Shown here piece after piece: positions 731 to 18,167 of a DNA stretch of 21,432 nucleotides. Both the position numbers and the translations under genes were made by a program. The notes beneath the pieces were generated by a model that was not told the origin of the DNA, searched no databases, and saw only the letters and a list, made by a program, of their open reading frames with translations. Location: positions 1-21,432 of the forward strand of contig JAGGYF010000033.1 in the NCBI GenBank assembly GCA_021162685.1, written 5' to 3'. Origin of the DNA: Candidatus Iainarchaeum sp. Lineage in GTDB: Archaea; B1Sed10-29; WALL01. Positions within the stretch are counted from its first letter, which is position 1. Every line of letters begins with the position of its first letter.

Positions 731-1941
731 CTTCTTCCCCCTCTGAAATTTTTCAGAGTCAAAACCTCCTTTTTCTCATTCCCATAAACATCCATATATA
801 CAACCATCATTTTCTTTCCAAGTTTTTTCGGATCAAGTCTAATTTCCCAATTATTCTTTTCCAAATCTTTTGAACTAAACCATTTTGAAAGATTAAACCA
901 CTCACCATTATAATCAAAATCAACCATTACCATCGATAGTGCTTTAAAACCACGATCTTCCTCAGAAATCGGTTTTTTAGTTGTAACATTGCTATAGAAT
1001 TTTTTAATTTTGATGACGGCTTCTTTTTCTCCTGTGAACCTACCTAAACCAGATTTTGGCTTATCAAAATAATAGTCACATTCAACTGTTGGTGGATTGA
1101 TAAAGTCAAACCCAACCTGCTCAAGAACAGTGTTTACGTCCTGGTCTGTGTAGATAGGTTGACTCAAAGGTGTGAATTGCTTTTTATGTAATTCATCTAT
1201 TATAGAGTAAGGTATTTTTAGAATGTAATACTTCACGTCATCCTTAGGAACAACATCTTCTCCAAATGCTACGCTTGCCCATGGAACAATTATGAAAAAC
1301 CTCTTACCAATTTTATCCCCTATTAAAGAATGTAACTGATCGATGGATTCATAATCCAGAACATATTCATGCTCATTCTTCCATTTGAAAACTAAAACGT
1401 GATCCAGTCCAAAATAACCATCCAATTTTACTTTACCAACTTCATGTGGCTCATCTTTACACTGGAATAGCTCCAAAGCAAACTTTCTATACTTTTCAAA
1501 CGGTAATTCTTTAATTATTGTGTAATCATATAGGCCAGCATTATAGACAGCAAATGGTTTTGGCTTTAATGACTTGCCTTTATTCCCTATTCCTTCTTTC
1601 AAATTCAACATTCTTTTGATCATTGTGTAAATGGCAAGCCTTCCAGCATCAATCATTATCCATCTCCTTCCGAGCTTTTCAGCAACTGCTCCTGTAGTGC
1701 CAGAGCCTGCAAAAGCATCAAGAACGATGTCCCCTGGGTTTGATGATGCTTTGATTACTCTTTCAAGGAGTTGTTCGGAGTTTTCAGTTGGGTAATTCCA
1801 ACTTTGTGAATATCCTTTTATATCAGTCCAATCCGTACCTAAATGTCTCCAAGTTCGTAGAAGCTCTGGTAGCCCAGTTTTACTATTAATCCGTACAAAT
1901 CCTTTTTTAACCATTTCATCAATAGCTTCTTGGCTCCACAT
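727..1941 (-). CDS. mod: DNA methyltransferase Mod, C-terminal fragment (SAM-binding motif I plus C-terminal extension)
   Basis: YPTENSEQLLERVIKASSNPGDIVLDAFAGSGTTGAVAEKLGRRWIMID. Confidence 0.7.
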   Translation of the reverse strand: MWSQEAIDEMVKKGFVRINSKTGLPELLRTWRHLGTDWTDIKGYSQSWNYPTENSEQLLERVIKASSNPGDIVLDAFAGSGTTGAVAEKLGRRWIMIDAGRLAIYTMIKRMLNLKEGIGNKGKSLKPKPFAVYNAGLYDYTIIKELPFEKYRKFALELFQCKDEPHEVGKVKLDGYFGLDHVLVFKWKNEHEYVLDYESIDQLHSLIGDKIGKRFFIIVPWASVAFGEDVVPKDDVKYYILKIPYSIIDELHKKQFTPLSQPIYTDQDVNTVLEQVGFDFINPPTVECDYYFDKPKSGLGRFTGEKEAVIKIKKFYSNVTTKKPISEEDRGFKALSMVMVDFDYNGEWFNLSKWFSSKDLEKNNWEIRLDPKKLGKKMMVVYMDVYGNEKKEVLTLKNFRGGRR

Positions 1942-2780
1942 CCATCTTCTTCTTCTTGGTGGATATATATTTTCCTTCCAAAAAATACTCGAGGCAGACT
2001 TATCTCTTTATCAGAAGAAGCATGCATCTCTACCCAATCCTGTTTTCTTATAAGTATTTTGTTTCTTTCTATTTTAAGTTCAATCTCCCACGGTTCTTCT
2101 ATCTTGATATGGTTGAAATAGTAATCGTTCGTTTTTGTATAAAAGAAGATAGAATCTGTGGATACATAAAATCTTCTCCCCTCACTCTTTAATCGTCTTG
2201 TTCTATTTATAATAATCTCATTCCTGAAATTCTCCTTGCCAAAAATCTCATCCATTAACACTTTTACATAATGTCCGAAGTGATAATCAATTCTAACATA
2301 AATGCTCCCGTCATCTGAGAGAATTTCCCTAAGTAAAATTAATCTCTTCCTTAACCACTCCAGGTATTTTGCTCCCATTAACTTTGCAGAATAAGCCCCC
2401 ACATTTCCCCTTCCATAAACATCTCCGGTTCCAAATGGTGGATCAATATAGATCAATTTAACCCCCGAACTTCCATCTGGGTTTTTCAATTTGCCTGCTT
2501 CTTTCCAAAACAACAATTCTTTCAAAACTTGTAGATTATCACCAAAAATGATCATGTTATGCCATTCGTTTTCATTTATTTTTCCGAAACCTTTAACTCT
2601 CTGTAAAGGAACGGCCATTGTTTCCGTGATTATATCTATGTCTCTTTCTTTTCCAGCATAAATTAACTCAGCTTCTTGTTTAGGTTCAAAAAGTAGCCAC
2701 TTAAACTCCTCTGGCAAAGATTTGCCTTCTTTCAATCTTTGTACGATGAATTCAATTTGCTCTTTTGTTATTTCCCCCAT
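1839..2780 (-). CDS. mod: DNA methyltransferase Mod, N-terminal fragment (catalytic DPPF motif)
   Basis: NMIIFGDNLQVLK, VKLIYIDPPF, LLREILSDDGSIYVRIDYHFGHYVKVLMDEIFGKENFRNEII. The last ~40 aa are out of frame. Confidence 0.7.
   Translation of the reverse strand: MGEITKEQIEFIVQRLKEGKSLPEEFKWLLFEPKQEAELIYAGKERDIDIITETMAVPLQRVKGFGKINENEWHNMIIFGDNLQVLKELLFWKEAGKLKNPDGSSGVKLIYIDPPFGTGDVYGRGNVGAYSAKLMGAKYLEWLRKRLILLREILSDDGSIYVRIDYHFGHYVKVLMDEIFGKENFRNEIIINRTRRLKSEGRRFYVSTDSIFFYTKTNDYYFNHIKIEEPWEIELKIERNKILIRKQDWVEMHASSDKEISLPRVFFGRKIYIHQEEEDGCGAKKLLMKWLKKDLYGLIVKLGYQSFYELGDI
1963..1970. repeat. (AT)4 dinucleotide tract at the mod frameshift
   Basis: ggATATATATtttcc on the + strand. An (AGA)4-type trinucleotide tract lies just downstream on the coding strand. 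Confidence 0.7.
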
Positions 2781-2907
2781 TTTCGCACCTTATTTAGTTT
2801 TCCAAAAGCATTTTTCTTCTGTTAACTTCAGATCCTCTTCCTATGCATCATATTTCTGATCATCCCTCTTTTTTATTACTTCCTCCTGTGGTTTGCCGAG
2901 AGCCTGA

Positions 2908-2921
2908 AATGTTTAAACATT
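2908..2921. promoter_or_regulatory. Perfect 14-bp palindrome AATGTTTAAACATT between the nuclease and mod genes
   Basis: Self-complementary with a TATA-like TTTAAA core, 12 bp past the nuclease stop codon. Function is inferred only. Confidence 0.35.
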
Positions 2922-2932
2922 GCTAGTGGAAT

Positions 2933-3964
2933 TCACACCCCATCTTCGGTCTCATCCAAAATTTCTTCCAGCATCTTTCTGTACTTTGGATTTATCCTAA
3001 AATCATCTTTTTCTTCACCACTTCTACTCCCTCCACTAAATTCAATTACTTGTCTCAGGTGGGAAGTGGGTCTTTTAGTAAGTAGTTGGGAGATGTTACT
3101 CAAGTATCTGCCCGTTTGTCCAAGGTTTTTACCAATGCCCTGCGAATATAACCTTTTTTTAATCTCCTCTCTTTTGAATGTTCTGTCCTCTGAAAGCAAT
3201 ATTCTAAGGAATGCTCTGAATCTTGGGGTAAGTTCTGTTTGCCTTGTTAAAGTTTCTTTAAGTTTTTTCTTTAATGTTTCATCATCAAAATTTCCGACTT
3301 CTAATGAAAAAGGACTGCTTCGTACAGTTCGCATTTCTCTCTGTTTCATCGTTTTCTTTTTGATGTACTCTTCTAATCCTGGGGTGGGAATTAACACTTC
3401 TGAGTTTAGGAATAGATCTCCATCTTCATCTTTGAATGGCACCAATCTTACACATTTTATATCCATACCATACTCTTCAGATAGCCATTTAGCAGCTTTC
3501 AGAACATCTTGATGAAATTCTTTGGATACTAATATTATTCTTTGTTTTTGATTAATTTTTTCTAAATCTTCTTCTATAAATGCTTCTATCTTTGATTTGG
3601 CCTCATCTGGGTCTTCATTATTGTCCTGTAAGTATTCTTCAAATAGAGTAATGATCTCATTTGGAGAATATTCAGAAAATTGTGCAGCATAAGTTATTGC
3701 TTGCCAATGTACTTCTCTACCCGAATCATCTCTCTTTAGTTCAATTATCACTAAATTTCCGTTCTTGTCTATTGCCAATAGGTCGGCCTGCCTTCCGGAA
3801 GGTAAACTGTTTTGTTCGCCAATTATCAATAGTGTTTCTTCTAGCACACCAGGATTTTTCCTGATCCATTCTTCAATATCAAACCTCTCTTTTATTTCAA
3901 ACTCTGAAAATTTTATTGGAGTTAGCTTTTTCAACCTTTTGTTTTCAACATCTATCTGATACAC
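2933..3964 (-). CDS. NucS/DUF91-like PD-(D/E)XK endonuclease domain protein
   Basis: ERFDIEEWIRKNPGVL...ADLLAIDKNGNLVIIELKRD...QAITYAA (E...D...ExK...QxxxY, RecB/NucS-like). GTG start after GGGGAG. Confidence 0.75.
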   Translation of the reverse strand: MYQIDVENKRLKKLTPIKFSEFEIKERFDIEEWIRKNPGVLEETLLIIGEQNSLPSGRQADLLAIDKNGNLVIIELKRDDSGREVHWQAITYAAQFSEYSPNEIITLFEEYLQDNNEDPDEAKSKIEAFIEEDLEKINQKQRIILVSKEFHQDVLKAAKWLSEEYGMDIKCVRLVPFKDEDGDLFLNSEVLIPTPGLEEYIKKKTMKQREMRTVRSSPFSLEVGNFDDETLKKKLKETLTRQTELTPRFRAFLRILLSEDRTFKREEIKKRLYSQGIGKNLGQTGRYLSNISQLLTKRPTSHLRQVIEFSGGSRSGEEKDDFRINPKYRKMLEEILDETEDGV

Positions 3965-4508: not shown

Positions 4509-5486
4509 ATGCCAACCAAAAGCCCTGAGGAAGTAAAAGAGGAAATATTGGAAGTACTGGATGATGTTCCTAGGACAGTGGATGAAATTAAAAGGCTGGC
4601 TGGGACTAGCTGGCTTGGGACAAAGAAGGCATTGGAGAGTCTAGATAGATTGGGCGTGGTGAAAACAGCGGTTAGAGGGAAGAGGAAATACTACTACAGA
4701 CCGACTGGGAAGACATGGTTTGGCTTGCCGATAAGGGAAAAAGATAAAGAGGTTTTAGAATACATATTCTGGAAGGCTAGGGAGATTTGGAAAGAAAAGG
4801 GAGTAGAGCCAAAAAGGGTGAACTTGCAGAAGGTTGCCGTCCATGTGGCTGAGGACCTAAAGTTGGATATTCCTGTGTTCAGATACTTGTATGGGCAGAT
4901 GACAGTACTCAAAGAAGCACCTAGCGAAAAACCCGCAAGGCCAAGCATTCCTGGGATAGAGGGATCAATAGAAGAGGCTGTAATGCTTTATTCTGGACCC
5001 GCGTACTTAGCAAAGGAGGTCCAATACAAAAAAGAAACAATGAGATTTTACGGGATAAAAAAAGAAATAGAACAAAACTGGCATAGGGAGTTTGAATCTG
5101 GGAAGCTAAGCAAGAGACTGATAGATTGGCTGATGGAAGCACCGAGGGATGAATACATAACTGAGGCCATAAAGGAAGTAATTTCTTTATATGCTCAGGC
5201 ACTCAAGGAAGAAAATCCTGTAGAATATTCTGAACCCCTGAGAGAAGTTTTTAGTAAGATGTGGGATGTGATTGCAACCAGGTTGGCGCACCTGGACTTG
5301 AAGAGTAAAGGTTATTCTGAAGAAGACTTAGAAGAACTCTCAAAGGTATTTGGAAACCGTGTTGAAGAAGCAAAGTACGCGTTGGATGAGTTTGAGAATA
5401 TGTTGACACCAGTAAAGTTGTCTTCGGAGATAGAGTCATTGAAAGGATCGGTTCAGAGATCTTCGGGCAACGAACAAGGAAAATAA
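4509..5486 (+). CDS. Winged-HTH protein with a putative Panacea/SocA (DUF4065)-like antitoxin domain
   Basis: N-terminal ArsR-like wHTH (EILEVLDDVPRTVDEIKRLAGTSWLGTKKALESLDRLGVV...RKYYY). The central LQKVAVHV...PVFRYLYGQ resembles the Panacea LQKxxY...WxYGP pattern (inference). Confidence 0.6.
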   Translation: MPTKSPEEVKEEILEVLDDVPRTVDEIKRLAGTSWLGTKKALESLDRLGVVKTAVRGKRKYYYRPTGKTWFGLPIREKDKEVLEYIFWKAREIWKEKGVEPKRVNLQKVAVHVAEDLKLDIPVFRYLYGQMTVLKEAPSEKPARPSIPGIEGSIEEAVMLYSGPAYLAKEVQYKKETMRFYGIKKEIEQNWHREFESGKLSKRLIDWLMEAPRDEYITEAIKEVISLYAQALKEENPVEYSEPLREVFSKMWDVIATRLAHLDLKSKGYSEEDLEELSKVFGNRVEEAKYALDEFENMLTPVKLSSEIESLKGSVQRSSGNEQGK

Positions 5487-5913: not shown

Positions 5914-7245
5914 ATGAAACCACCCATTACAATATATGGCGGGAAGAAGGAGATCGGGGGAAACAAGGTTTTGTTAGAGGGGAGAGATGCGAAGTTGTGG
6001 TTGGATTTTGGAGTTGGATATGCATCTAGAAGTAAGTATTTTGAGGAGTTTGTTAATCCACGGCCTGCGAATAGGATTGGAGACTTTATTGAGATGGGGT
6101 TGGCTCCGAATCTGAAGGGATTGTACAGGGAGGATTTGATAGGAAGGAGAGAGGAAGTTGAGTATGATGGTGTGTTTATTTCTCATGCGCATATGGATCA
6201 TTGTGCTTATGTGTCGTTTCTGAATCCAGAGATCCCTGTGTATATGAGTGAGGTTACGAAGTTGGTGTTGGAAGCGGTTAAAGAGGCGGGAAAGAGAGAT
6301 ATAGAATTGGAAATACTGGCGTTTAAGGAGAGGCCGATTAAGAAAGGAGCAGAGGAGATTGAGAGGGATATTAGGATTTTCAAGAGTGGGAAGAGGAAGA
6401 GGATTGGAGAGTTTGAGGTAACGCCAGTGAATGTTGATCATTCTGTTCCTGGTGCACACGGGTTTGTTGTGGATGGACCAGAAGGAAGGGTAGTGTATAG
6501 TGGGGATTTGAGGATGCATGGGAGGGGAAGAGAGAAGACAGAGGAATTTGTGGAGAAGGCAGAAGGAGCAGACGTTCTTGTTTTAGAAGGAACTAGGGTG
6601 GAAGAAAAGAGGTCTAGGCTGGAAGAAGATGTTGAAAGGGATGTTGTGAAGTGGGTTAAGGAGCATAGTGGATTGGTGTTAGTTGATTTTAATTTTAAGG
6701 ATGTGGATAGACTGAAAACGTTTTTGAAGGCAAGTGAGGAAAGTGATAGGATATTTGTGATTCCTTTTAAGGAGGCGGTTTTGGTTAAGCATCTGTCAAA
6801 AAAATTGAAGATCCCCTCATTGGATAATTTTGTGTTGTTCAAGCCGAAGAGAAGAAGCGGGATGTTTGAGGAGAGGGACTACAGAGGAGTAGAGAAGGAG
6901 TATTATGAGAAGTATGAGTCATGGACGTATAAGGATGTTATGGAGAATGAGAAGAAAGTTATGCTGTTTTTGTCGTATTATGCGTTTCCGAATTTGATTG
7001 ATTTAAAGCCAAAGAATGCACTGTTTATTCATTCGTTGTCAGAGGCATTTAATGAGGAGATGGAGATTTCAAAGAGGAGGATGATGAATTGGCTGAAGCA
7101 TTTTGGGATAGAGTATAGGCATAGTCATTGTTCTGGGCATGCATCTGGTTCGGAGTTGAGGGATATCGCGAAAGGGATTAATCCAAAGAGGGTGATTCCA
7201 ATTCATACAGAACATCCTAGGAAGCTTACTAGGTTGGTGAAATGA
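5914..7245 (+). CDS. MBL-fold metallo-hydrolase, beta-CASP/RNase J-like
   Basis: EIGGNK, LDFG, SHAHMDH (HxHxDH), VDHSVPGA, YSGDLR, LEGT, HCSGHA, PIHTEH. Start set at ATG 5914 (MKPPITIYGG). Confidence 0.85.
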   Translation: MKPPITIYGGKKEIGGNKVLLEGRDAKLWLDFGVGYASRSKYFEEFVNPRPANRIGDFIEMGLAPNLKGLYREDLIGRREEVEYDGVFISHAHMDHCAYVSFLNPEIPVYMSEVTKLVLEAVKEAGKRDIELEILAFKERPIKKGAEEIERDIRIFKSGKRKRIGEFEVTPVNVDHSVPGAHGFVVDGPEGRVVYSGDLRMHGRGREKTEEFVEKAEGADVLVLEGTRVEEKRSRLEEDVERDVVKWVKEHSGLVLVDFNFKDVDRLKTFLKASEESDRIFVIPFKEAVLVKHLSKKLKIPSLDNFVLFKPKRRSGMFEERDYRGVEKEYYEKYESWTYKDVMENEKKVMLFLSYYAFPNLIDLKPKNALFIHSLSEAFNEEMEISKRRMMNWLKHFGIEYRHSHCSGHASGSELRDIAKGINPKRVIPIHTEHPRKLTRLVK

Positions 7246-7778
7246 TCGGTGTTCTGATTGAAGCAGTTGTGGTTTTGTTTTATATGGTAGCATTGGCTAA
7301 AGGGAGGAACTCAGAGATCACCAGATTTGAAGTTGAGGACTGGAGAAAGGATGTTTTGATTCCGTTTGTGTTGGGTGCTTTGGTAGCAGTGGTGTTTGCG
7401 TTGGTTGGGGGAGTGAATGTTGTTTATAGGGGATTGTTGGGACTGATTCATAGTTTGGCAATTGCTCCTTTGTTTGAGGAGTTGGCGTTTAGGGGAGTGT
7501 TGTTGGGAGGAACGATGAAGTTGTTGGAAAAGAATTTTTCTAAGAGAGTGGTGGATATTAGCGGAGGGGTGTTGGTGGTTTTGGTGGCACTGGGTTTTAC
7601 GATGTTGCATGATTTGGTTTCAAAGGAGTTGTTTGTTTCTGCTGTTTTGTATGGGTTTTTGTATTTGTGGAGGAGGAATCTGGCTGGGCCAGTGGTTGCG
7701 CATTTTGGTGGGAATTTGGTGGTTTGGGTGTTGGCTTTGTTCCTCAATATTTCTTTCCTAGAGGAAACAAACTTTTAA
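7242..7778 (+). CDS. CPBP family (CAAX/Abi) intramembrane metalloprotease; C-terminus now supplied by inserted DNA
   Basis: APLFEELAFRG, FTMLH and VVAHFGGN motifs in a multi-TM protein. The last 14 codons lie inside the insertion. Confidence 0.8.
   Translation: MIGVLIEAVVVLFYMVALAKGRNSEITRFEVEDWRKDVLIPFVLGALVAVVFALVGGVNVVYRGLLGLIHSLAIAPLFEELAFRGVLLGGTMKLLEKNFSKRVVDISGGVLVVLVALGFTMLHDLVSKELFVSAVLYGFLYLWRRNLAGPVVAHFGGNLVVWVLALFLNISFLEETNF
7715..7733 (+). repeat. 19-bp direct repeat, copy 1 (TTTGGTGGTTTGGGTGTTG), putative target-site duplication
   Basis: Identical to 9096-9114. Encodes LVVWVL of the CPBP gene. Confidence 0.85.
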
Positions 7779-7803
7779 GAGTTTGTAGCCTGAAGGAAAG
7801 AAA
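7747..7803. repeat. 57-bp palindromic direct repeat A, copy 1 (downstream of ATPase 1)
   Basis: ATATTTCTTTCCTAGAGGAAACAAACTTTTAAGAGTTTGTAGCCTGAAGGAAAGAAA, 55/57 identical to 9038-9094. Confidence 0.9.
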
Positions 7804-7809
7804 TTGATG

Positions 7810-9012
7810 TTAATACAGCAATCCTATTGAGTATAAAGATACTTCTCCCTTTGATGGTAGCAATGTTTCTTTAACGACATAATGATCGCTATTTCTACCC
7901 AATTGTGATTTACCCTTTGAAGGTCCACCTACTTCAAATACCTTCCCATTCACAACGTAATCAGGTGTCCTTCTTTTTACGCCTGTTTTCAGATACATAG
8001 CATCCCCAACGTGCTGAATGAAAAAGTCTTCACGGATGCCTCCAATACTAGGTTTTACATTGTACTTTGTACACATTGCATATCTGTAGGACAATGACAT
8101 TAACACTTTGTCTTCAGACCTTATTGCTCTGTGTCCTTTTCCGTGCGGAGGGATAATGCGTAGTATCCCTGTCTCTGACAATTTTTCGACTATGTCTCTT
8201 GCAAGTTTTATCCCACATCCGAGTGAGGACGCTAGTTTAGTATAACTAAACTCTCCAGGATCAGATGTTGCCACAAACTTGATCACTCTATAAGCCAAGC
8301 TTATGTAGTATTCGTCAATTTCCCTTAAACTTGCCAAATCGTATCTGATCACCCTATCAAGTATGTTCCAATATATATCTGGATTATTGCTGTAAAATGC
8401 GGCAGGTAATGCGTCTGATTGTACATATGGTTCGTAGAGTGATACATACTGTCCAATCATTTTAGCAATCCTTGTTGTGGGCGATTTAATTATCTCCTCA
8501 AGTGTCATCTTTGGTAGTCTATCCCCTGTCCTTAGGAATATATATTCCCTAAAGGATAGTGGCTTTAGTTCAAATGTTCTTACCCTCCTTGATAGTTCAG
8601 AAGCAGATATCTTTAGGTTTATTGCAGATGAGCCTGTTACCACAATTTTTGAGTGGGTTTCATCATAAAATATCTTTATGTTGTTGGGCCATCCAGGATA
8701 AGTATGTATTTCATCAAGTAGAAAGACATTATAACCTTTTGTTTCGGCATATTCAAGAAATTCAAGCAGGTCAATATCATATTTTACAAGTATGCTAGCA
8801 TCCATATATAACGATTTATCCAGTTTTGCATTAAGTGATGATAGCAGCGTTGTTTTTCCAGTGCCTCTTAGTCCATGTATTGCAAATATTCCACTATTTG
8901 ATAGTATTTCATTTATTATCTCATTACTTGCGTCTCTTAGTTTATCCACTGCTGAGGTTCTGGATATCCTAGCAGCCTCTGAGACTGCCTTTGAGAACAA
9001 TGTTTCTTCCAT
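7810..9012 (-). CDS. AAA+ ATPase (AAA_14 family) with wHTH and degenerate PD-(D/E)XK-like C-terminus (ATPase 1)
   Basis: Walker A GLRGTGKT, Walker B VFLLDEIH, VTGSS, ELSRR, C-terminal TPDYVV...FEVGG. Confidence 0.85.
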   Translation of the reverse strand: MEETLFSKAVSEAARISRTSAVDKLRDASNEIINEILSNSGIFAIHGLRGTGKTTLLSSLNAKLDKSLYMDASILVKYDIDLLEFLEYAETKGYNVFLLDEIHTYPGWPNNIKIFYDETHSKIVVTGSSAINLKISASELSRRVRTFELKPLSFREYIFLRTGDRLPKMTLEEIIKSPTTRIAKMIGQYVSLYEPYVQSDALPAAFYSNNPDIYWNILDRVIRYDLASLREIDEYYISLAYRVIKFVATSDPGEFSYTKLASSLGCGIKLARDIVEKLSETGILRIIPPHGKGHRAIRSEDKVLMSLSYRYAMCTKYNVKPSIGGIREDFFIQHVGDAMYLKTGVKRRTPDYVVNGKVFEVGGPSKGKSQLGRNSDHYVVKETLLPSKGEVSLYSIGLLY

Positions 9013-9037
9013 ACTAGAATTTTGTGGTTACTTATAT

Positions 9038-9094
9038 ATATTTCTTTCCTCAAGGAAACAAACTTTTAAGAGTTTGTAGCCTGAAGGAAAGAAA
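9038..9094. repeat. 57-bp palindromic direct repeat A, copy 2 (abuts the ATPase 1 TATA box)
   Basis: ATATTTCTTTCCTCAAGGAAACAAACTTTTAAGAGTTTGTAGCCTGAAGGAAAGAAA. The minus strand reads GAAAGAAA-TATATATAAG about 20 nt before the ATG. Confidence 0.9.
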
Positions 9095-9095
9095 G

Positions 9096-9120
9096 TTTGG
9101 TGGTTTGGGTGTTGAAGTGA
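9096..9120 (+). repeat. 19-bp direct repeat, copy 2, followed by the orphaned original CPBP end (AAG TGA)
   Basis: t TTG GTG GTT TGG GTG TTG AAG TGA = LVVWVLK*. Confidence 0.85.
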
Positions 9121-9123
9121 GAC

Positions 9124-10341
9124 CTATACTTCCCACACAGGTATGAAGTATACATTTCTTGAGATCTCAGTTTTTTTCATCCAAAAAACTATCCCAAACG
9201 GTGAGTTAAAGTCTCTGATGAAGTTATAGAACGCTTTTCTCGGTTTGCCTCTGCTTTTTATTTCTATTGGTATTGGTGGATCTCCAACTATGACATCAAT
9301 CTCTGCTCCGGATAATGTTCTGAAATACGTTGGATTCATTTCGTTTATCTCGTTAATAACAAAGTTTTCAAGTAGTCTTCCAAGATCAATTCTATCCCAA
9401 ACATCTGAAAAATCATTTATGATAGCATTTCTCAGTCCAATATCAATGAAGTAAACTTCATTCCTCTTTGTTATCGTTTTTCTTCTATTTGTTGAGAAGG
9501 GAGGTATTTGTCTTATGATGTATGTCTTTTCAAGTGCATATAAATACTCTCTTAGAGTTATTTGGTTCACATCCGATATCTTTGAAAATCTGGATATATT
9601 CAGGCCTTTTCCTAGGTCTGCTGCAAGCAATTTAACAACCCTTGTGAATTTTTCGCTATTTTTTACTCCCATAAAATGAACTATATCTCTTTCTATGTAT
9701 GTTTGGTATAAACTTTTTAGTAGCATTCTCTTTTTCTCGTAATCTCTCTCAGTGACTATTCTGGGGAACCCACCATACATTAAATACTCGCTGAACAACC
9801 TTTTCACTTCCTGTGAGAATGCGAACTCGCTAACTTTCTTTTTATTTCCTTTGAGAAGTGTTAATATTATGCTCTTATTTTTTGACCACAACCTGTATAG
9901 TTCAGGATTTTTGTATTCCAAGAATTCTCCAAAATCTAAGGGAAGCAATTCAAAGTAGACTAGCCTTCCAACAAGGTAACTTCCGATATCTACCTTTATG
10001 TCAAAAGACCCAGATCCAGAGACAACAATTTTCAGTTTCCCTTTGTATTGGTCATACCACATCTTCAAGATGTGCCCAATTTCTTTAATGTATTGAGCCT
10101 CGTCTAGGTATATGATTTTCTTTGATAAGTATCTTTGGATAAACCCCTTAGCATCTCTTTTTATGGCGTCTCTTGTGTCATCGTCCTCCAAGGTCAAGTA
10201 TTCTCCGCCGTATTTGGACAACAAGTACTTTAGGGTTGTGGTCTTTCCAGCTTGTCTTGGTCCCTTTATTGCTATGATCTCTGGGGAGTCCATCCACCCC
10301 TCTATCTTGATCCAGATTTTTCTAGGAATGACATCTTCCAT
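9124..10341 (-). CDS. ATP-binding protein, AAA_14 + DUF4143 (ATPase 2)
   Basis: GPRQAGKTT, IIYLDEAQ, SGSGS, LVGR, YGGFP, YFIDIGLRN, LLENFV, EIDVIV...IEIK. GGTGA SD at 10346-10350. Confidence 0.9.
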   Translation of the reverse strand: MEDVIPRKIWIKIEGWMDSPEIIAIKGPRQAGKTTTLKYLLSKYGGEYLTLEDDDTRDAIKRDAKGFIQRYLSKKIIYLDEAQYIKEIGHILKMWYDQYKGKLKIVVSGSGSFDIKVDIGSYLVGRLVYFELLPLDFGEFLEYKNPELYRLWSKNKSIILTLLKGNKKKVSEFAFSQEVKRLFSEYLMYGGFPRIVTERDYEKKRMLLKSLYQTYIERDIVHFMGVKNSEKFTRVVKLLAADLGKGLNISRFSKISDVNQITLREYLYALEKTYIIRQIPPFSTNRRKTITKRNEVYFIDIGLRNAIINDFSDVWDRIDLGRLLENFVINEINEMNPTYFRTLSGAEIDVIVGDPPIPIEIKSRGKPRKAFYNFIRDFNSPFGIVFWMKKTEISRNVYFIPVWEV

Positions 10342-10419
10342 AGGGTCACCAGTATGTTTTCAACGTTATAATTTTTATAGTTTACTATAATTTTTACAGG
10401 GTAAATTTAATAGTGTGGT

Positions 10420-10462
10420 TATTTATAAACCTTCTTCTCAAAAATGCGAAGGTTTATAAATA
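10420..10462. promoter_or_regulatory. Perfect 15-bp inverted repeat forming back-to-back BRE-TATA-like elements
   Basis: TATTTATAAACCTTC-N13-GAAGGTTTATAAATA. Each arm read outward is GAAGG-TTTATAAA. Confidence 0.6.
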
Positions 10463-10466
10463 GTAG

Positions 10467-10514
10467 GGTTTCTCTTAGGGGGAAATAATTTAAAAAGATT
10501 TCCCCTTATGGGAA
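10467..10514. repeat. 48-bp palindromic direct repeat B, copy 1 (overlaps last codons and stop of ATPase 3)
   Basis: GGTTTCTCTTAGGGGGAAATAATTTAAAAAGATTTCCCCTTATGGGAA, identical to 11714-11761. Confidence 0.9.
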
Positions 10515-11713
10515 ACTAATTCAAAGAAAGAGATGTTCCGAATGTTTTTCAAGGGATATTTTTTCACAGTTATTATGTATTTTTTCGGCGTTTTTAGTAG
10601 GTGGAATCCACGCGTTTCACGTTCTAGTGTTTGTTTATTTAAGCCGTAGGCTACTTGGATCGCGGTTAGTGGTTTTTCTAGGATGAAATCCAATTCTGAG
10701 GAAGCGTCAGAGAGGTAGTATATGTTTGATAATCCAAATGTTCTTACCAGTTCACTGAATATGATATTCTCAAAAATCCTCCCCTCATTCCTTAGGAAGA
10801 TATGGTCACAAAGATAGACCTTTGGGAGTGCTTTTTCTCTTGATTTTTTAGATCTGTAGAATTTTTTTACCTCAAAAAAGAAAAGTGCATTTAGGATGTA
10901 CATATAGTAGGTATATAGTGTTTTTTTGCTCACCTTCATTCCCATAGATTTGACATCGTTGAATATTTTATGGATAGAGAATGTGCTTGCAACCGAGGAT
11001 TCAATTGAAGTGAGAAGGTAATAGAGTAGTTTCAGATTTCTTATGTTGTATCTTTCAATGATGTCCCTGAAGACGACGACATCTTTGTAGTCTGAAAGGA
11101 ACTGTTGTTTTGTGTGTGGGGATAGTACGACTTGTGGAAATCCCCCCAATTTCATGTATTTGTGGAATTTTTTGATTAGTTTTGATTCTGAGTATGAAGA
11201 ATGGATAGCCTCAAACTTTTCGTTATATTTGAACCTAAGAAATTCTGGAAAAGATAAGGGCAGAACAAGATGTGAGATGGATCTGCCCCTCATGGAAGTG
11301 GCGATCTCTTTACTTGTGACCCTTGAGTTTGATCCTGTAATGACTATCTTGTATCGCCCTCCTTCATGTATAGAGGATATTGCTCTCTCCCAACCGTTCA
11401 TGTTTTGTATTTCATCTAGGAAGATATACCCAGGCCTCTTTCCATAGATGGATATGTGGGTATTAACAGCATCCTTTATAAGGCGGATGTTTGGTTCAAT
11501 TTCTGGGTCTTCTAAGTTTATGTACAGATAATCATCGTCGCTGAGATGTAGTTTGTTCTTTATGATATCATATATGAGGAAACTTTTTCCTGCCCTCCTT
11601 GGTCCAACAAGAACTGTGACAAATTGATGGGTCAGTGTGGGATAGAGATCCCTGGGTAGTACATTTACTTCCTTGATTTCTTCCTTTTTGTCCAAGAGGT
11701 ATCTTTCGTTCAT
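10490..11713 (-). CDS. ATP-binding protein, AAA_14 + DUF4143 (ATPase 3)
   Basis: GPRRAGKS, YIFLDEIQ, ITGSNS, MRGR, GGFP, KVYLCD, IFENII, ELDFIL...IQV. Confidence 0.9.
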   Translation of the reverse strand: MNERYLLDKKEEIKEVNVLPRDLYPTLTHQFVTVLVGPRRAGKSFLIYDIIKNKLHLSDDDYLYINLEDPEIEPNIRLIKDAVNTHISIYGKRPGYIFLDEIQNMNGWERAISSIHEGGRYKIVITGSNSRVTSKEIATSMRGRSISHLVLPLSFPEFLRFKYNEKFEAIHSSYSESKLIKKFHKYMKLGGFPQVVLSPHTKQQFLSDYKDVVVFRDIIERYNIRNLKLLYYLLTSIESSVASTFSIHKIFNDVKSMGMKVSKKTLYTYYMYILNALFFFEVKKFYRSKKSREKALPKVYLCDHIFLRNEGRIFENIIFSELVRTFGLSNIYYLSDASSELDFILEKPLTAIQVAYGLNKQTLERETRGFHLLKTPKKYIITVKKYPLKNIRNISFFELVSHKGKSF

Positions 11714-11761
11714 GGTTTCTCTTAGGGGGAAATAATTTAAAAAGATTTCCCCTTATGGGAA
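11714..11761. repeat. 48-bp palindromic direct repeat B, copy 2 (immediately 5' of the ATPase 3 ATG; contains its likely TATA box)
   Basis: The minus strand reads ...GGGGAAATCTTTTTAAATTATTTCCCCCTAAGAGAAACC-ATG, with the TATA-like core about 22-30 nt upstream of the ATG. Confidence 0.9.
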
Positions 11762-11797: not shown

Positions 11798-12160
11798 GTG
11801 TTAGTCAGGGTTGAATTACCAAAAACAAAAAGCAATATTGTGAAAAAGAACGGAGGAATTATCTATTGCGCAGTCTATAGAGAGAAGAAGGGAAGGTTTA
11901 GGAAAGATGTTGAGGAGTCAAGAGAGTTTGGAAGGAGAATATGTGATGCAGTGAAAAAGAGGATGCATAACAAGGGGTTTTTTACTAGTGATGAATTGCC
12001 AGGATATGGAATTTCAGAAGAAGAGAAAGCAATTATTCTTGAAAGGACAGGAGCAGGAAAAGATGATTTAGTAGCTATTTTTGCTTATGAGAAAGACGAG
12101 GCAGAGGAAACGAAAAGAGTTTTGGATGAAATTTTAAAGGAGAGTGAAACTCATGGTTGA
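11798..12160 (+). CDS. Stand-alone GAD-like domain protein (resembles the AspRS-like insertion domain of GatE)
   Basis: GFFTSDELPGYGISEEEKAIILERTGAGKDDLVAIFA matches the GatE GIFHSDELPxYGIxxxE pattern recalled from the family. No GatB/E catalytic domains in 120 aa. Confidence 0.7.
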   Translation: MLVRVELPKTKSNIVKKNGGIIYCAVYREKKGRFRKDVEESREFGRRICDAVKKRMHNKGFFTSDELPGYGISEEEKAIILERTGAGKDDLVAIFAYEKDEAEETKRVLDEILKESETHG

Positions 12161-12240: not shown

Positions 12241-13434
12241 TTAGTCTTCCTCGAATATCCTCATTATATTCTCATCTATCCTCTTTAGAGATTCTTTGTC
12301 AATATCAATATCTTTTAACCAAGGTACTCCATGCCAAGCCGCACGATCTCTGTAGTAGCGTACAAGACTTAGTGCACTGGTTTCTCCATAGTTAAGAAAG
12401 TAACCCGATGAAAGCTGTGAGAGATGTTCTTGTGTTAGTCCTTTGTCTTTACCCACAGCATCTATGACAGCTTTTCTCATGCGTGGATTTTGTAGGCCAC
12501 CAGCAAACATTAGCCTAAAAATCATCACCTTTTTTTCGACATCTCCAACTTTCTTCAAGTACCCTTCCACCATACGAGCAGCCTTTTCTACGGCTTCTGC
12601 ATTATTGTTAGGGATTTCTGGTAGGGGGGACCTCCAGTATACTTTTCCAAGCTCTTTGAATTTTCCTGCCAAAACTGTTTTGATTCGCTCCTCAAAGTGG
12701 GGTAGGTTCCCCTCAACAGGTACCCCCCTCTCAGCAGTTCTTATTGTTGTCACACTACGAACATTCCATGGGAGAATATCCTCCAGTCTTGCATAATCTC
12801 TATTACTGAACTCTTTAATTATTTTTCTGTCAAGCTCCTTCATCTTCTCTGCAAAATCGTTTTTTAACCTGTGAAAACCTCTACTGCCAGAAAATTTATC
12901 CTCCATTGATTTAATCATGAGAGAGAGTATAGCTATAGCTCTCCACGGTTCTTCTGATATCCTATCAACAATCCTCTTCTCAGCTAGAAGTTGTATTTGT
13001 CCTGTGTTGGCCCTATTGTCGGCTCCAGTGTACATTAATGATATGTTTATAATGTGTGCATCTTCATTAGGAGCCTTTGGATCAAATTCATGAAGCTTCT
13101 TTGGTCGTTTTTCTAGCTTTACGAAGTTCCCATCCTTGACAAGTCTGTGCTCTACAATTGGGGAGATTATTGTGTTATAAGCTAAACGAACCCCCGGCAC
13201 TTTAATTGACTTTGGTTCCCTTACCCCCCTATAGAGAGCAGCCACCCCACTTCCAGTTATGATCCCAAGCTCTTTCATTACTGCATTGCTGAGTATCTCC
13301 TTTGCAAATTCCTCATCATGCATTTGATGCAACAATGTTCCCAGTTCTATCTCTTTCTCGCGCTTTTTACCATCAACTTCCCACGATATCCTTACCTTTT
13401 TCTTCATGATTTCGGGACGTTTTTCAATTGGCAT
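12241..13434 (-). CDS. Hypothetical protein (397 aa, soluble, charged)
   Basis: Long ORF with protein-like composition and an upstream TTTTAAA TATA-like box at ~13457-13464. No family recognised. Confidence 0.75.
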   Translation of the reverse strand: MPIEKRPEIMKKKVRISWEVDGKKREKEIELGTLLHQMHDEEFAKEILSNAVMKELGIITGSGVAALYRGVREPKSIKVPGVRLAYNTIISPIVEHRLVKDGNFVKLEKRPKKLHEFDPKAPNEDAHIINISLMYTGADNRANTGQIQLLAEKRIVDRISEEPWRAIAILSLMIKSMEDKFSGSRGFHRLKNDFAEKMKELDRKIIKEFSNRDYARLEDILPWNVRSVTTIRTAERGVPVEGNLPHFEERIKTVLAGKFKELGKVYWRSPLPEIPNNNAEAVEKAARMVEGYLKKVGDVEKKVMIFRLMFAGGLQNPRMRKAVIDAVGKDKGLTQEHLSQLSSGYFLNYGETSALSLVRYYRDRAAWHGVPWLKDIDIDKESLKRIDENIMRIFEED

Positions 13435-13557
13435 ACTATACTTATCATTCTTTACAATTTAAAACTATCCTGAGTACTGTCCATTTGGGTTCTCGGAAAT
13501 GAGAAGAGGTTTAAAATTAATCCTACAAAAACCTTACCCTTTTTTCTATGCTCCTTG

Positions 13558-13600
13558 TGAATTGCCAGGATTGGATTTCAGAAGAAGAGAAAGCAGTTAT
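13558..13600 (+). repeat. Degenerate copy of GAD-gene segment 11992-12036
   Basis: TGAATTGCCAGGAT-TGGA-TTTCAGAAGAAGAGAAAGCAGTTAT vs TGAATTGCCAGGATATGGAATTTCAGAAGAAGAGAAAGCAATTAT (two 1-nt gaps, one mismatch). Confidence 0.85.
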
Positions 13601-13680: not shown

Positions 13681-15024
13681 GTGGACAAAGCAGATGTATT
13701 TGAGGTAGCTATATCAAATCCAGTTTCAAGGGCTTTCTTCAGAGGAATTACTAAAAACAAGAGATTGGAAAGAATACTTTCAAGGGAGAAGCAGAACTAT
13801 GATCTGGCGTGCTATTTTTATCAGCCTTGGGTTGACTTAATGCTTTATGCAACTTCAAGGTTTTTTCACTTTGAAAGCGACTTGAGAGAGAAAGGGAGGG
13901 AAAAATTAGTTAAAAGGGGAGCACAAAACCTATTTGCTTCAATAGGTGAGTATGGTTTAACACAGCCTCAGAAACTTGTGGCTCCATTTCTTGTTGTCTG
14001 GGATGTAACTAAGGCTTGTAACTTGAAGTGTGCACACTGCTACTCCAACTCAGGAAAGGCTTCAAAAAATGAGTTAACAACGCAGGAGGCAAAAGACATA
14101 ATTGACCAATTGGTTGATGCAGGTGTTGTCTCCCTTGCTTTTTCAGGGGGAGAACCGCTGGTGAGACCAGACATCTTTGAATTACTTGAGTATGCTTCAA
14201 AAAGCGGGCTTTACACAGCACTTGCTACTAATGGTACCCTCATAACAAAAGATGTTGCTAGAAAGATAAAGCAGACAGGAACAGAATACGTGGAGATAAG
14301 CCTGGATAGCCCAAACCCTGCAGTGCATGATGCTTTTAGAGGGGTTACTGGGGCTTTTGATAGAACTGTTAATGGGATAAAAAACTGCGTTGACCAAGGA
14401 ATGTGTACAGTAATTGCTACAACAGTTACAAGACATAACATTAATGATATAGATAAGATGGTAGACTTGGCTCTTAAGCTGAAAGTGTTCAGGTTGCTGT
14501 TTTTCAACTTTGTTCCAACTGGGAGAGGAAAGCAAATAACTGGCTCTGACCTAACCCCCCAACAAAGAAAAGAGCTTTTAGAGTATATATGTAGGAAAAG
14601 AGATGAGTTGATGGGAAAGCTTGACTTTTTTTCGACTGATCCGTGCTTTGCTGCTGCTCTAGTAAGACACAAAAAGGATATGTTTGTGGAGCATACAGCA
14701 AAATTCCTTGGGGGCTGTGCTGCTGGTAGGGTTTACTGCTCAATTACTGCTGAAGGAAAGGTCAAGCCATGCGTTTTCATGCCAATAATTGTTGGTGACT
14801 TGAGAAAGCAGTCTTTTGAGGATATATGGAACAATTCAGAAGTAATGAAAAACTTAAGGGACTGGTCAAAAAGAAATGAGAAATGCCGCGAGTGCAAGTA
14901 CAACACTATTTGCGGTGGATGCAGGTCGCGTGCTTATGGTTACACAGGCAATTATCTTGGCGATGACCCTCTTTGCCCTTACTCAAGCGAGTTATGGCCT
15001 AAAGAAAAGGATATAAAAGAGTGA
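13681..15024 (+). CDS. Radical SAM protein with SPASM domain (NirJ/AhbCD/PqqE-like superfamily)
   Basis: CNLKCAHC (CxxxCxxC), SGGEPL, C-terminal CAAG...KPC...CRECKYNTICGGCRSRA...DPLC. GGTGG SD before the GTG, and BRE-TATA CGAAAGGTTATTTAA at 13623-13637. Confidence 0.9.
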   Translation: MDKADVFEVAISNPVSRAFFRGITKNKRLERILSREKQNYDLACYFYQPWVDLMLYATSRFFHFESDLREKGREKLVKRGAQNLFASIGEYGLTQPQKLVAPFLVVWDVTKACNLKCAHCYSNSGKASKNELTTQEAKDIIDQLVDAGVVSLAFSGGEPLVRPDIFELLEYASKSGLYTALATNGTLITKDVARKIKQTGTEYVEISLDSPNPAVHDAFRGVTGAFDRTVNGIKNCVDQGMCTVIATTVTRHNINDIDKMVDLALKLKVFRLLFFNFVPTGRGKQITGSDLTPQQRKELLEYICRKRDELMGKLDFFSTDPCFAAALVRHKKDMFVEHTAKFLGGCAAGRVYCSITAEGKVKPCVFMPIIVGDLRKQSFEDIWNNSEVMKNLRDWSKRNEKCRECKYNTICGGCRSRAYGYTGNYLGDDPLCPYSSELWPKEKDIKE

Positions 15025-15039: not shown

Positions 15040-16311
15040 ATGAGAGAGATATTAGTGGTTGTTCTTGCTGTGGCTGTGATTGGTTCACTTGTGTTGTTTC
15101 TTTTTCCTTATAATCCATTGCATCCTCCGAGGGCAGATGAGACAGGGGCTACAGAGGAAGGGATTAGAGCAGTTGTTGATGCAAATAATGCGTTTGCTTT
15201 TGATATGTATTCGGTGTTGAGTAAAGAGGAAGGGAATGTGTTCTTTTCACCTTATAGTATCTTCTCTGCTATGGCGATTGTGTATGAGGGAGCAGTGGGG
15301 GATACTGCAGAGGAGATAGGAAGCGTGTTGTATTTTCCGAGTAAGGAGGTTTTGGAGCCGAATTTTGCTGCGGTGTACAATGGAGTTAATAGCAGGGGTG
15401 TGAGAACAGGGAATGCGCTCTGGGTTCAGAAGGGATTTCCATTGGTTGAGGAGTATGTGGAGAGGGTGGAGAAGTACTATGGTGGTAAGGCAGCAAATGT
15501 TGATTTTGTGAATAAGCCAAAGGAGAGTGTGAGTACGATTAATCAGTTTATAGAGGAACAAACAAATGGAAAGATAAAGAAACTTATCAATGAGAACATG
15601 ATTACTTCTTTGACAAGGGTTATAGTGACAAATGCTGTATACTTTAAGGGGAAGTGGAAGTGGCAGTTTGATCCAAGTAAGACAAGGGATATGGAGTTTC
15701 ATGTTTCTCCTGAGGAGAGCGTGGCTGTAAGGATGATGTATATGGAGCCAGAGAAGGCGAAGTTTAGGTATGGCGATTTCGGTTTTATGCAGATGCTGGA
15801 GTTGCCCTATGAGGGAAATATGTCAATGATTATTCTGTTGCCAAAGCAGGGGAAAGAGTTTGATCCGATGACAGGTGAGGCGATTACATATAATTATACA
15901 ATAGAGGATGTTGAAAAGCAACTAACGCTTGAGAATTTTGAGAAGTGGAGATCAGAGATGAAAGAGACTAAACTTGATGGGATCTATCTTCCGCGCTTTG
16001 AAACAGAGGAGAGTTATGATTTAGTGGAAGGTATGAAAGAATTGGGTGTAGAAGATGCGTTTGATCATTTTAGGGCAGATTTTTCTGAGATGAGTGAGAG
16101 GCCCCTGTATATAGATTTTATTGTGCATAAGGCGTATGTTAAGGTGGATGAGGAGGGGACAGAGGCGGCAGCAGCAACTGCTGTTAGTTTTTCTGTGACT
16201 GCGGTGAGGAAGGAGAAGGTGTTTAAAGCAGATCATCCATTTGTGTTTTTGATTCAGGATGATGGTTTGATACTGTTTATGGGAAGGGTTGTTGATCCTA
16301 CAAAAACCTGA
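15040..16311 (+). CDS. Serpin (serine protease inhibitor) with N-terminal membrane anchor/signal
   Basis: NNAFAFDMY, NVFFSPYSI, NAVYFKGKW, LELPY, hinge VDEEGTEAAAAT, FKADHPFVFLI, ILFMGRV. Hydrophobic residues 4-23. Confidence 0.95.
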   Translation: MREILVVVLAVAVIGSLVLFLFPYNPLHPPRADETGATEEGIRAVVDANNAFAFDMYSVLSKEEGNVFFSPYSIFSAMAIVYEGAVGDTAEEIGSVLYFPSKEVLEPNFAAVYNGVNSRGVRTGNALWVQKGFPLVEEYVERVEKYYGGKAANVDFVNKPKESVSTINQFIEEQTNGKIKKLINENMITSLTRVIVTNAVYFKGKWKWQFDPSKTRDMEFHVSPEESVAVRMMYMEPEKAKFRYGDFGFMQMLELPYEGNMSMIILLPKQGKEFDPMTGEAITYNYTIEDVEKQLTLENFEKWRSEMKETKLDGIYLPRFETEESYDLVEGMKELGVEDAFDHFRADFSEMSERPLYIDFIVHKAYVKVDEEGTEAAAATAVSFSVTAVRKEKVFKADHPFVFLIQDDGLILFMGRVVDPTKT

Positions 16312-16876
16312 CGCTGTTTGCGATGTCTTTTATGGTTTGTTCTTTGACTTTGCCGTTGGAGTTTATGGAGAGGATTACGTAGGTTACATTGCCTCTTGTT
16401 TGGAATGCATCGCATTCTGTGATTTTTGGTACGCCGAATAGTTTTTCTTCGGATTGGGCGCAGACGATTATCCAGTCGCCTTGTTTTGTTCTGGAGAGTA
16501 CGTGCATGGTTTCGTCGTGGCCAAAGTTGAATGATGGAGATATAAAGTCATCTACGTATTCTTCTGTGGTTGTTGTGTTTGAGGGGAATCTGTAGAGAAC
16601 GTATGCTGTTGTGTCAGGAGCCATTACTTTTGCGAGTTGGACTTCTGGGTAGTTTATTTTGAGCTCTTTGCCTTCTGGGAAATGGATGACTAGTTCGTCA
16701 AATTCTCTTACGTGAAGTGTTGTTCCGTCTGATTGGATTTCTCGGATGGTGCATTGGCCGCCGTAGCAGCCAGAGTCTGTGGTGCATTCAAAGCCAGTTG
16801 TGCATGGGGAGCCTGGTGGCTTTGAGAAACAGCCGGTAAGGGAGATGATGAGCAGCAACAGGAGAAGAGTTTTCAT
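16298..16876 (-). CDS. Putative lipoprotein with N-terminal Cys-rich module
   Basis: MK-hydrophobic-LTGC lipobox, then CTTGFECTTDSGCYGGQC. Confidence 0.7.
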   Translation of the reverse strand: MKTLLLLLLIISLTGCFSKPPGSPCTTGFECTTDSGCYGGQCTIREIQSDGTTLHVREFDELVIHFPEGKELKINYPEVQLAKVMAPDTTAYVLYRFPSNTTTTEEYVDDFISPSFNFGHDETMHVLSRTKQGDWIIVCAQSEEKLFGVPKITECDAFQTRGNVTYVILSINSNGKVKEQTIKDIANSVRFL

Positions 16877-18040: not shown

Positions 18041-18167
18041 TTTTGGTGGTTTTTTTGGAAAAGAAGGGAAAAAAGCAGAGATTTTTGGGAGAGAAGATGT
18101 TTAAACGGATTTTGTAACTATTATGCAGTGGTATAATATTTTAAGGGGGGAAGGAGTAAGGAATAGT

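Follow-up and report, generated by a model that had tools for sequence, protein, structure and literature searches.

Palindromic direct repeats bracket single AAA_14/DUF4143 ATPase genes in an Iainarchaeum genome and mark candidate one-gene cassettes

Three genes for AAA_14 ATPases lie side by side on the minus strand (7810–9012, 9124–10341 and 10490–11713) of a 21,432-nt stretch of DNA from Candidatus Iainarchaeum sp. (contig JAGGYF010000033.1 of assembly GCA_021162685.1; hereafter the window), and the first and third of them are each bracketed by a palindromic direct repeat of their own. Comparison with related genomes reveals that each gene bracketed in this way forms a unit by itself, with a palindromic module that is specific to its clade and repeated at either end, and that such units come and go. 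We favour, with moderate confidence, the reading that they are one-gene insertion/excision cassettes, the palindromes of which are predicted to serve as binding sites of the cassette's own protein and as its promoter.

All three window ATPases exceed the Pfam gathering cut-off for AAA_14 (PF13173; 27 bits) and match the PDC-S01 profile models of PADLOC. ATPase 1 (400 aa) scores 84.3 bits with AAA_14 and 3.1e-21 with PDC-S01, and its C-terminus carries the series E...D...E-V-G-G-x-x-K; ATPase 2 (405 aa) scores 92.6 bits with AAA_14, 109.6 bits with DUF4143 (PF13635; cut-off 28.1 bits) and 1.2e-79 with PDC-S01, and has a canonical D...E-I-K; ATPase 3 (407 aa) scores 113.1 bits with AAA_14, 56.5 bits with DUF4143 and 3.4e-87 with PDC-S01, and has Q-V-A as its third motif. 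The original prediction, made from the letters of the window, had described the genes as AAA_14/DUF4143; the AAA_14 part holds for all three, while DUF4143 is reported for ATPases 2 and 3 only. ATPase 1 has no DUF4143 row in Pfam at E ≤ 0.001, and its C-terminus still aligns with the others, with the E and D columns kept.

The repeat pair of ATPase 1, R57, is identical at 55 of 57 positions (96%) with a spacing of 1291 nt. Its stop-side copy (7747–7803) begins 6 nt beyond the stop codon and its promoter-side copy (9038–9094) lies 25 nt ahead of the ATG, each copy being made of two tandem imperfect palindromes with sites of the type TTTnTTnCC–4 nt–GGnnAnAAA. Together with the repeat edge, the spacer between R57 and the ATG (9013–9037, minus strand) makes an A/T-rich, TATA-like box, a putative promoter called from sequence only. 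The pair of ATPase 3, R48, is identical at 48 of 48 positions with a spacing of 1247 nt; the stop-side copy (10467–10514) encodes the last 8 codons and the stop, and the promoter-side copy (11714–11761) ends at the ATG and places its A/T centre, TTTTTAAAT on the gene strand, about 27 nt before it. Orientation and distance to the ATG are the same in the R48 orthologue of genome G007, and an A/T centre of 11–13 nt is common to R48 and to a third type of repeat, P43, described below. The promoter calls at both repeats rest on the archaeal TATA consensus. Each of the two repeats is unique to its two sites in the 1.11-Mb genome of the window (G000; 45 contigs, searched with blastn-short); around ATPase 2 no flanking repeat is present, its flank score of 11.5 ranking 41 of 522. 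Both pairs thus stand where they had been predicted, as does the placing of one copy at or over the stop; for the claim that the other copy sits on the promoter, the position upstream of the ATG is confirmed, and the promoter itself is putative, called from TATA-like boxes. The prediction that integrases and transposases are missing also holds among the scanned window ORFs, and the tyrosine recombinase family PF00589 has 0 candidates in the 98.4%-complete G000, whereas all 14 control genomes have one. No Rfam family was found in the window.

A chance origin of the R57 and R48 bracketing is excluded. Among the G000 ORFs of at least 250 aa, an exact flanking repeat of at least 20 nt was found for 5 of 541, two of them ATPases 1 and 3; when the start region of each ORF was locally aligned with its stop region, these two took ranks 2 and 3 of 522. 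The ten testable AAA_14 genes of G000 rank 2, 3, 5, 11, 41, 89, 136, 182, 209 and 244 of 522, an enrichment over the other ORFs (3/10 vs 5/512, p = 2.7e-4). Rank 5 is held by an ATPase gene on contig C39 with a 26-nt repeat pair, and rank 11 by one on C16 with the palindrome GTTACA–4 nt–TGTAAC twice upstream and twice downstream; other high scorers of this genome are explained otherwise, by a tandem pair of TPR paralogues (C42) and by tRNA-related repeats.

The layout recurs in relatives, where gene-specific repeats around homologues had been predicted. AAA_14 genes are present in 19 of 31 species genomes of 0.3–1.3 Mb, for which the class and phylum sets are identical, and all 52 places outside G000 were examined. 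Among the 48 ATPase ORFs that could be tested, 22 reach a flank score of at least 18, and the best of the 113 control ORFs (non-ATPase, at least 200 aa, same loci) stays at 16.5 (22/48 vs 0/113, Fisher p = 3.9e-14); one of the 22, L065, is an adjacent paralogue pair and is to be set aside. The repeats measure 26–85 nt, are often perfect and differ from gene to gene, and the adjoining genes are not ATPases. The geometry is constant, with the promoter-side copy at about −90 to −20 of the ATG and the stop-side copy starting, in most cases, between −41 and +12 of the stop. A palindrome is significant against shuffles (p ≤ 0.03) in 10 of the 22 repeats, commonly as two tandem palindromes of about 20 nt. 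Four other archaeal genomes gave 3 of 14 ORFs with a score of at least 18, namely one ATPase_2/DUF234 gene and two adjacent tandem ATPases. Bacterial plasmid homologues, eight of which were picked as a spread from 265 matched plasmid records, have the layout in two cases. In Treponema succinifaciens pTRESU01, a palindrome with 13-nt arms sits in the promoter between the −35 and −10 regions, and a second copy follows 4 nt past the stop and is succeeded by a T-run, a symmetric pair of changes keeping the palindrome. A metagenome scan with the R48 core returned only two contigs, 99.97–100% identical to the G007 and G018 loci, and thus no new loci; no relatives of ATPase 1 or ATPase 3 were found on viral contigs.

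The bracketing layout may be wider than this one family. On contig C11 of another small archaeal genome (G035), a perfect 64-nt direct repeat (L088; 2106–2169 and 3504–3567) surrounds an ATPase_2/DUF234 gene, a sister architecture, and a perfect 71-nt direct repeat full of TTAACGRTA motifs (L086; 765–835 and 2144–2214) brackets a gene for a Schlafen AlbA_2 + HATPase_c_4 + DUF7342 protein.

That the duplications arose in the assembly of a metagenome-derived genome is barely credible. Features that could suggest such an origin are the 45 contigs of G000, its dispersed repeats and the frequent 127-nt overlaps between its contigs, but the 48–57-nt repeats are shorter than these overlaps, and the short-word contigs of four sequencing runs cover both copies in their own contexts, stopping at the repeat borders as true repeats do. 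The layout is moreover present in at least 12 other assemblies and in finished plasmids. As side observations on the assembly, many G000 contigs overlap by exactly 127 nt, and a dispersed family of short repeats (about 45–130 nt) occupies the ends of C3, C12, C13, C15, C19, C41 and other contigs and also occurs inside at least ten contigs.

We consider it very unlikely that the repeats are without a role, a by-product of tandem duplication, partial deletion and gene conversion in a paralogue-rich island. Events of this kind are in evidence at the TPR pair on C42 and at the adjacent ATPases of L065 and of L075, all of which have long flanking repeats. In the window and in nearly all other cases, though, the neighbours are not paralogues, the repeats are intergenic palindromes and not gene ends, and the same geometry recurs across many clades and in Bacteria. 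Beyond the stop-side repeats, no remnant of a second gene copy was seen.

The type of repeat follows the clade of the protein. A quick IQ-TREE result for 62 ATPases groups genes with related repeats: ATPase 3 with the G007 gene, both having R48 and the palindrome-encoded tail being kept in proteins that are 59% identical; ATPase 1 with the G014 L052 gene, both having two sites of the R57 type; and the C16 ATPase with the G011 L032 gene, to which further such pairings can be added. The members of the P43 clade come from G011, G018, G006 and G013. This match of clade and repeat fits cognate recognition of the module by the protein; shared descent of the whole unit would look alike.

The two copies of a module resemble each other more than they resemble their orthologous counterparts. 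In 8 of 8 orthologue comparisons (6-nt pads), the identity of the copies within a cassette (0.72–0.91) exceeds every between-genome value (0.36–0.76), and upstream copies are no nearer to orthologous upstream than to downstream copies. As such, the pairs have been renewed or homogenised, rather than having simply drifted since an old duplication. R48-type ORFs stop in the A/T centre of the stop-side copy, and P43-type ORFs read through this copy to a stop at the position matching the start codon in the promoter-side copy; since the ORF runs into the stop-side copy in both types, one period of the repeat holds the promoter together with almost the whole ORF. A circle opened within the module would look like this.

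Direct comparison of neighbouring genomes identifies the bracketed gene as a unit of gain and loss. Seven cassettes (L053, L044, L039, L057, L060, L054 and L027) were compared with congeneric genomes, and in each of the 5 informative comparisons the congener has no ATPase at the orthologous site; L054 and L027 had no usable synteny with congeners. The most precise case is L053 (G017:C26), both flanks of which are collinear with G013:C6 at 70–75% identity; in place of gene and repeat pair, G013 has a single two-palindrome module at the orthologous site, the solo-repeat allele that had been predicted for relatives. In G002, the ATPase of L044 abuts the stop of an MscS-like gene, and an 85-nt second copy of the 3′ end of this gene, about 80% identical and in frame, lies beyond the ATPase promoter; in G004 and G005, the ATPase is missing and the 3′ end of the MscS-like gene occurs once. 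Similarly, the L039 ATPase of G004 is flanked by a 54-nt duplicate of another gene's 3′ end, and the host gene is present in G002 and G005 without an adjoining ATPase. The cassette at 9425–10675 of L021 is flanked by a 61-nt duplicate of the promoter and first codons of the next gene. At L057 and L060 the ATPase is missing in the congener, the borders do not fall at repeats and no solo copy is present. R48-like sequence occurs in 4 of 31 genomes; solo palindromes of this type are present in G010 and, between convergent genes, in G018.

The window itself has a solo module of the third type. P43 (10421–10463) has 15-nt arms and a 13-nt loop, a palindrome score reached by 0 of 300 shuffles, and lies 3 nt from R48; it is 93–94% identical to both repeats that bracket an ATPase in G011, and the tree of 62 ATPases places no G000 protein in the P43 clade. 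A contig of G013 (L035; G013:C27, 1758 nt) consists of little more than one P43-type cassette, with the gene at 220–1491 and repeats at 215–251 and 1487–1523, the assembly being broken on both sides of it.

ATPase 1 has a host-sequence duplication of the same kind as those of L044, L039 and L021. A 19-nt direct repeat, exact and unique in the genome, stands just outside the R57 pair, with its left copy at 7715–7733 and its right copy at 9096–9114; it had been overlooked in the original prediction, as had P43 and the tandem make-up of R57, and 0 of 200 shuffles reach its score. The left copy falls within the 3′ end of a host gene (7242–7778, plus strand; Pfam PF02517, 3.5e-11) encoding a CPBP/Rce1-like membrane protease; this gene enters the left R57 copy and has its last 14 codons beyond the 19-nt repeat, and from the right copy the protease frame continues for one codon and then stops. 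Protease orthologues end 10–11 residues past HxxxN; the present reading ends 20 residues past it, and a reading from the right-hand copy 7. A protease homologue in G012 (L134; G012:C6 10721–11224) sits where the congener G007 has an ATPase cassette. An outer repeat was found for 1 of 25 cassettes tested, that of ATPase 1 alone, and a general outer target duplication was rejected on this count.

The spread of the family is patchy. The nearest homologues of the window ATPases lie in other families of the phylum, at identities no lower than those of the Hef helicase-nuclease encoded at 18123–20348 of the window. ATPase 3 is 59% identical to its nearest homologue in G007 (Hef, 58%), the C16 ATPase 64% to that in G011 (Hef, 52–55%) and the C25_151 ATPase 77% to that in G009 (Hef, 57%). 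With the genes missing in all 5 informative congener comparisons, the solo modules and the host duplications, the original prediction of one-gene units at a hotspot finds support, as units of gain and loss; that the protein itself is the nuclease or recombinase is doubtful for ATPase 3, and the suggestion of self-targeting found no support in this analysis.

Solo modules and host-derived duplications also bear on an improbable alternative, in which the module belongs to the host and the ATPase gene homes into it, inserting beside a recognised palindromic site and duplicating 19–85 nt of target each time. It would account for a solo module at an orthologous site and at unrelated sites, for the variable length of the host duplications and for the presence of promoter and stop codon within the repeated module of the R48 and P43 types. 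Homing endonuclease genes, however, normally split their site and destroy it, and here both copies of the module are whole. The same module furthermore accompanies the same protein clade into unrelated contexts and into genomes of different families, solo modules are rare (R48-like sequence as a whole having been found in the 4/31 genomes above), and no known function would keep unoccupied sites in place.

The predicted fold of ATPase 3 resembles that of DNA-binding AAA+ proteins, joined to a candidate nuclease-like domain. In an AlphaFold2 model built from a 20-sequence alignment (pLDDT 87.6), residues 12–308 form an AAA+ module followed by a winged helix and match 2qby, 2v1u, 1fnn, 2fna and 2qen; the best matches are SSO1545 (2fna, Z 16.4) and PAB2304 (2qen, Z 15.9), followed by STAND NTPases and by Orc1/Cdc6 on origin DNA, the last of which also gives the top Foldseek row (2qby, E 3.2e-07). 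Two transposition ATPases, MuB and TnsC, also match, over the AAA+ core (Z of about 10). A search of the PDB by sequence gave no match for ATPase 3. Folded alone, the C-terminal 108 residues (pLDDT 84.9) adopt the order alpha-beta-beta-beta-alpha-beta; they have no Foldseek match at E ≤ 0.001, and most of the best weak rows are restriction-type nucleases, the weak rows including McrC, EcoRII, Ecl18kI, MspJI, Bax1 and Can2.

Conservation in the nuclease-like domain differs between clades. The family alignment shows conserved Walker A and B and, in the nuclease motif, an E and a D that never vary. The third motif reads E-x-K in ATPase 2, as it does in the clade that carries duplications of host sequence; the ATPase 1 clade has E-V-G-G-x-x-K at this place, and the R48 and P43 clades have Q-x-[A/T/S]. 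ATPase 3, with Q-V-A, does not have the canonical catalytic residues and is probably not an active nuclease of the usual kind. Because the R48 and P43 clades are without the E and K of the third motif, self-catalysed cutting is doubtful there.

These features can be combined into a model of the cassette. A unit of about 1.25–1.3 kb would comprise the AAA+ ATPase gene and one gene-specific module of one or two palindromes at or abutting the promoter, the protein having a STAND/Orc1-Cdc6-like N-terminal part with a winged helix and then a restriction-endonuclease-like domain. In the chromosome, the module is present twice in direct orientation, giving a terminally redundant unit that looks as though a circle had been cut open within the module. 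In the genome comparisons, a solo module is left where the stretch between the copies is lost, and insertion comes with duplication of the module or of 19–85 nt of host sequence, often the 3′ end of a host gene. The protein is predicted to bind its own palindromes through the winged helix, as suggested by the fold and by the association of clade with repeat type. Binding at the promoter-side copy may repress the gene's own expression, and the stop-side copy may double as a terminator. The terminal redundancy could result from the opening and closing of a circular or tandem form, or from insertion with duplication; breaking and joining might be carried out by the nuclease-like domain of the protein or by host homologous recombination on an excised circle.

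Autoregulation probably holds for the promoter-side copy under this model too, and it is compatible with mobility. Regulation without mobility, in which an autoregulated gene has the palindromes as its operators, with the stop-side copy serving for termination or as a looping operator, and the immobile units differ between genomes through ordinary deletions and rearrangements of the island, is possible and in our view unlikely. It draws on several observations: promoter-side copies overlap or abut TATA-like boxes or, in Treponema, occupy the interval between −35 and −10; the typical module is two tandem palindromes with half-sites conserved and with loops that drift in older pairs; in Treponema, a T-run follows the stem of the stop-side copy; the fold is like that of DNA-binding AAA+ proteins with a winged helix; and no recent intragenomic copies are present. 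Left unexplained are the non-palindromic pairs of host sequence around ATPases that congeners do not have, the full identity over 48–61 nt, loops and spacers included, between copies of which the orthologues differ, the solo modules without a cognate gene, and the ORFs that end inside a repeated promoter module.

Several observations weigh against the cassette model that we favour. The promoters are putative, and the binding of the repeats by the proteins is predicted. The best paralogue identity within G000 is 41%, and recent copies are missing, unlike what an active transposable element typically shows. The 7 cassettes compared yielded a single precise solo allele, which simple deletion between direct repeats would equally produce. 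A target-type outer repeat is confined to 1 of 25 cassettes, and the host duplications, varying over 19–85 nt, fit none of the fixed staggered cuts that are known. Some of the best-kept repeats belong to the R48 and P43 clades, in which the third nuclease motif is without its E and K. Flanking repeats are missing around roughly half of the family's members in the phylum, ATPase 2 among them, and outside the phylum the count is only 3 of 14, two of these being the adjacent tandem ATPases. All relatives are metagenome-assembled genomes; start codons were taken from the longest ORF, such that distances to the ATG may be off. Finally, no joint, circle junction or empty-site read was seen in the low-depth contigs of four runs from one study, which are too shallow to show one.

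A stronger form of the cassette model, held tentatively, is that these are autonomous one-gene mobile elements of a new class, in which the cassette's own protein would recognise the end modules and drive excision to a circle of about 1.25 kb and re-insertion. Some clades would then use host recombination or a partner in trans.

The layout resembles integron cassettes and Xer-dependent modules in principle and fails their defining features. Like integron cassettes, the units hold one ORF with an imperfect palindrome right after the stop, are clustered, leave solo sites and are predicted to be excised as circles. G000, however, has no IntI or any other tyrosine recombinase (PF00589), no attI and no common promoter. 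An integron cassette is a promoterless ORF with its own attC and has the different attC of its neighbour ahead of it, whereas here the same module stands on both sides and the gene has a putative promoter of its own. The window module is also specific to the gene's clade, and the cassette encodes the likely site-binding protein. Xer-dependent modules (pdif, IMEX) consist of genes bracketed by palindromic recombination sites and exchanged as modules through one universal dif-like site and the host XerC/D or XerA; the palindrome-bracketed genes are alike, but the window sites vary by gene and the genome has no PF00589 match.

Insertion sequences of the IS200/IS605 group and REP/RAYT elements likewise consist of one gene between ends that form hairpins, and they too lack a regular short duplication of the target. 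The cassettes differ from insertion sequences in having no Y1 or DDE transposase, in having ends that are direct copies of one module and in not occurring as multiple identical genome copies; the fixed short target duplication of insertion sequences and transposons is likewise not matched by host duplications of 19, 54, 61 and 85 nt. Replication origins offer a parallel, in that inverted repeats on either side of an A/T-rich centre, beside the gene of an AAA+ winged-helix protein, are bound by that protein. Orc1/Cdc6, SSO1545 and PAB2304 share the fold of ATPase 3 residues 12–308, whereas the window ATPases have in addition, compared with Orc1/Cdc6 initiators, a restriction-endonuclease-like C-terminal domain, and their sites flank the gene as direct repeats. 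We place the units among gene cassettes bracketed by recombination sites and see a fair chance that they are a new class of one-gene mobile element.

The family has been described from a different side. DUF4143 is placed in the PD-(D/E)XK superfamily with function unknown (table row in PMC3424549), and PDC-S01, which corresponds to AAA_14 + DUF4143 (COG1373), an ATPase fused to a PD-(D/E)XK domain, ranks fourth in frequency among the defence candidates of prokaryotes, is enriched in Archaea and is unvalidated, with 9,986 counts in Archaea and 29,494 in Bacteria, validation being pending for most such candidates (PMC12988326). All three window ATPases match the PDC-S01 models, and the window holds other defence-type genes. 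No mention of flanking repeats, cognate DNA sites, solo sites or insertion polymorphism was found in PMC3424549, PMC12988326 and bioRxiv 10.64898/2026.10.19.760177, supplements aside, and no description of the bracketed-cassette layout was found in the literature on DUF4143, COG1373 or PDC-S01 with the same limit.

Other features of the window complete its description. Defence-type genes adjoin the ATPases at 104–3964, including a DUF4145 protein (PD-T7-4-like), a NucS-like nuclease (PDC-S11 match, 1.8e-60) and the halves of an N6_N4 DNA methylase in two overlapping ORFs (727–1941 and 1839–2780), possibly owing to a frameshift; the ORF at 4509–5486 has a DUF7342 match. On the other side of the ATPases, an ORF of 397 aa (12241–13434, minus strand) is bracketed by a direct repeat of 43–45 nt (93%; 11992–12036 and 13558–13600), the left copy of which lies inside a GAD-domain ORF (11798–12160) and the right copy of which is a degenerate fragment of that ORF. 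That this 397-aa protein might be a hidden ATPase was rejected, since Pfam, PADLOC and Atlas gave no lead on it, a Walker A is missing and the ATPase profile does not truly match it. A 34-nt repeat (82%; 13517–13550 and 16292–16325) lies around a radical SAM/SPASM gene (13681–15024) and a serpin gene (15040–16311). The window Hef is split into separate helicase and nuclease matches in G011, G013, G015, G017, G021, G024, G025, G026, G028, G029 and G030, some with stops at the joint.

Each gene of the family that has the layout appears to be accompanied by a DNA site of its own, placed twice at constant positions around the gene, and the two sites delimit a unit of gain and loss. This provides a possible reason why AAA_14/DUF4143 genes are multi-copy, diverse and patchy, and a concrete handle on the family, the repeats serving as ready substrates for binding, cleavage and excision assays. 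If the tentative reading as a new class of element is true, PDC-S01 would consist largely of selfish cassettes that pile up in variable islands, and the location of these genes in defence islands may reflect the site of accumulation and not a role in defence. The finding of such a gene in a defence island may thus mark a selfish cassette as easily as a defence gene.

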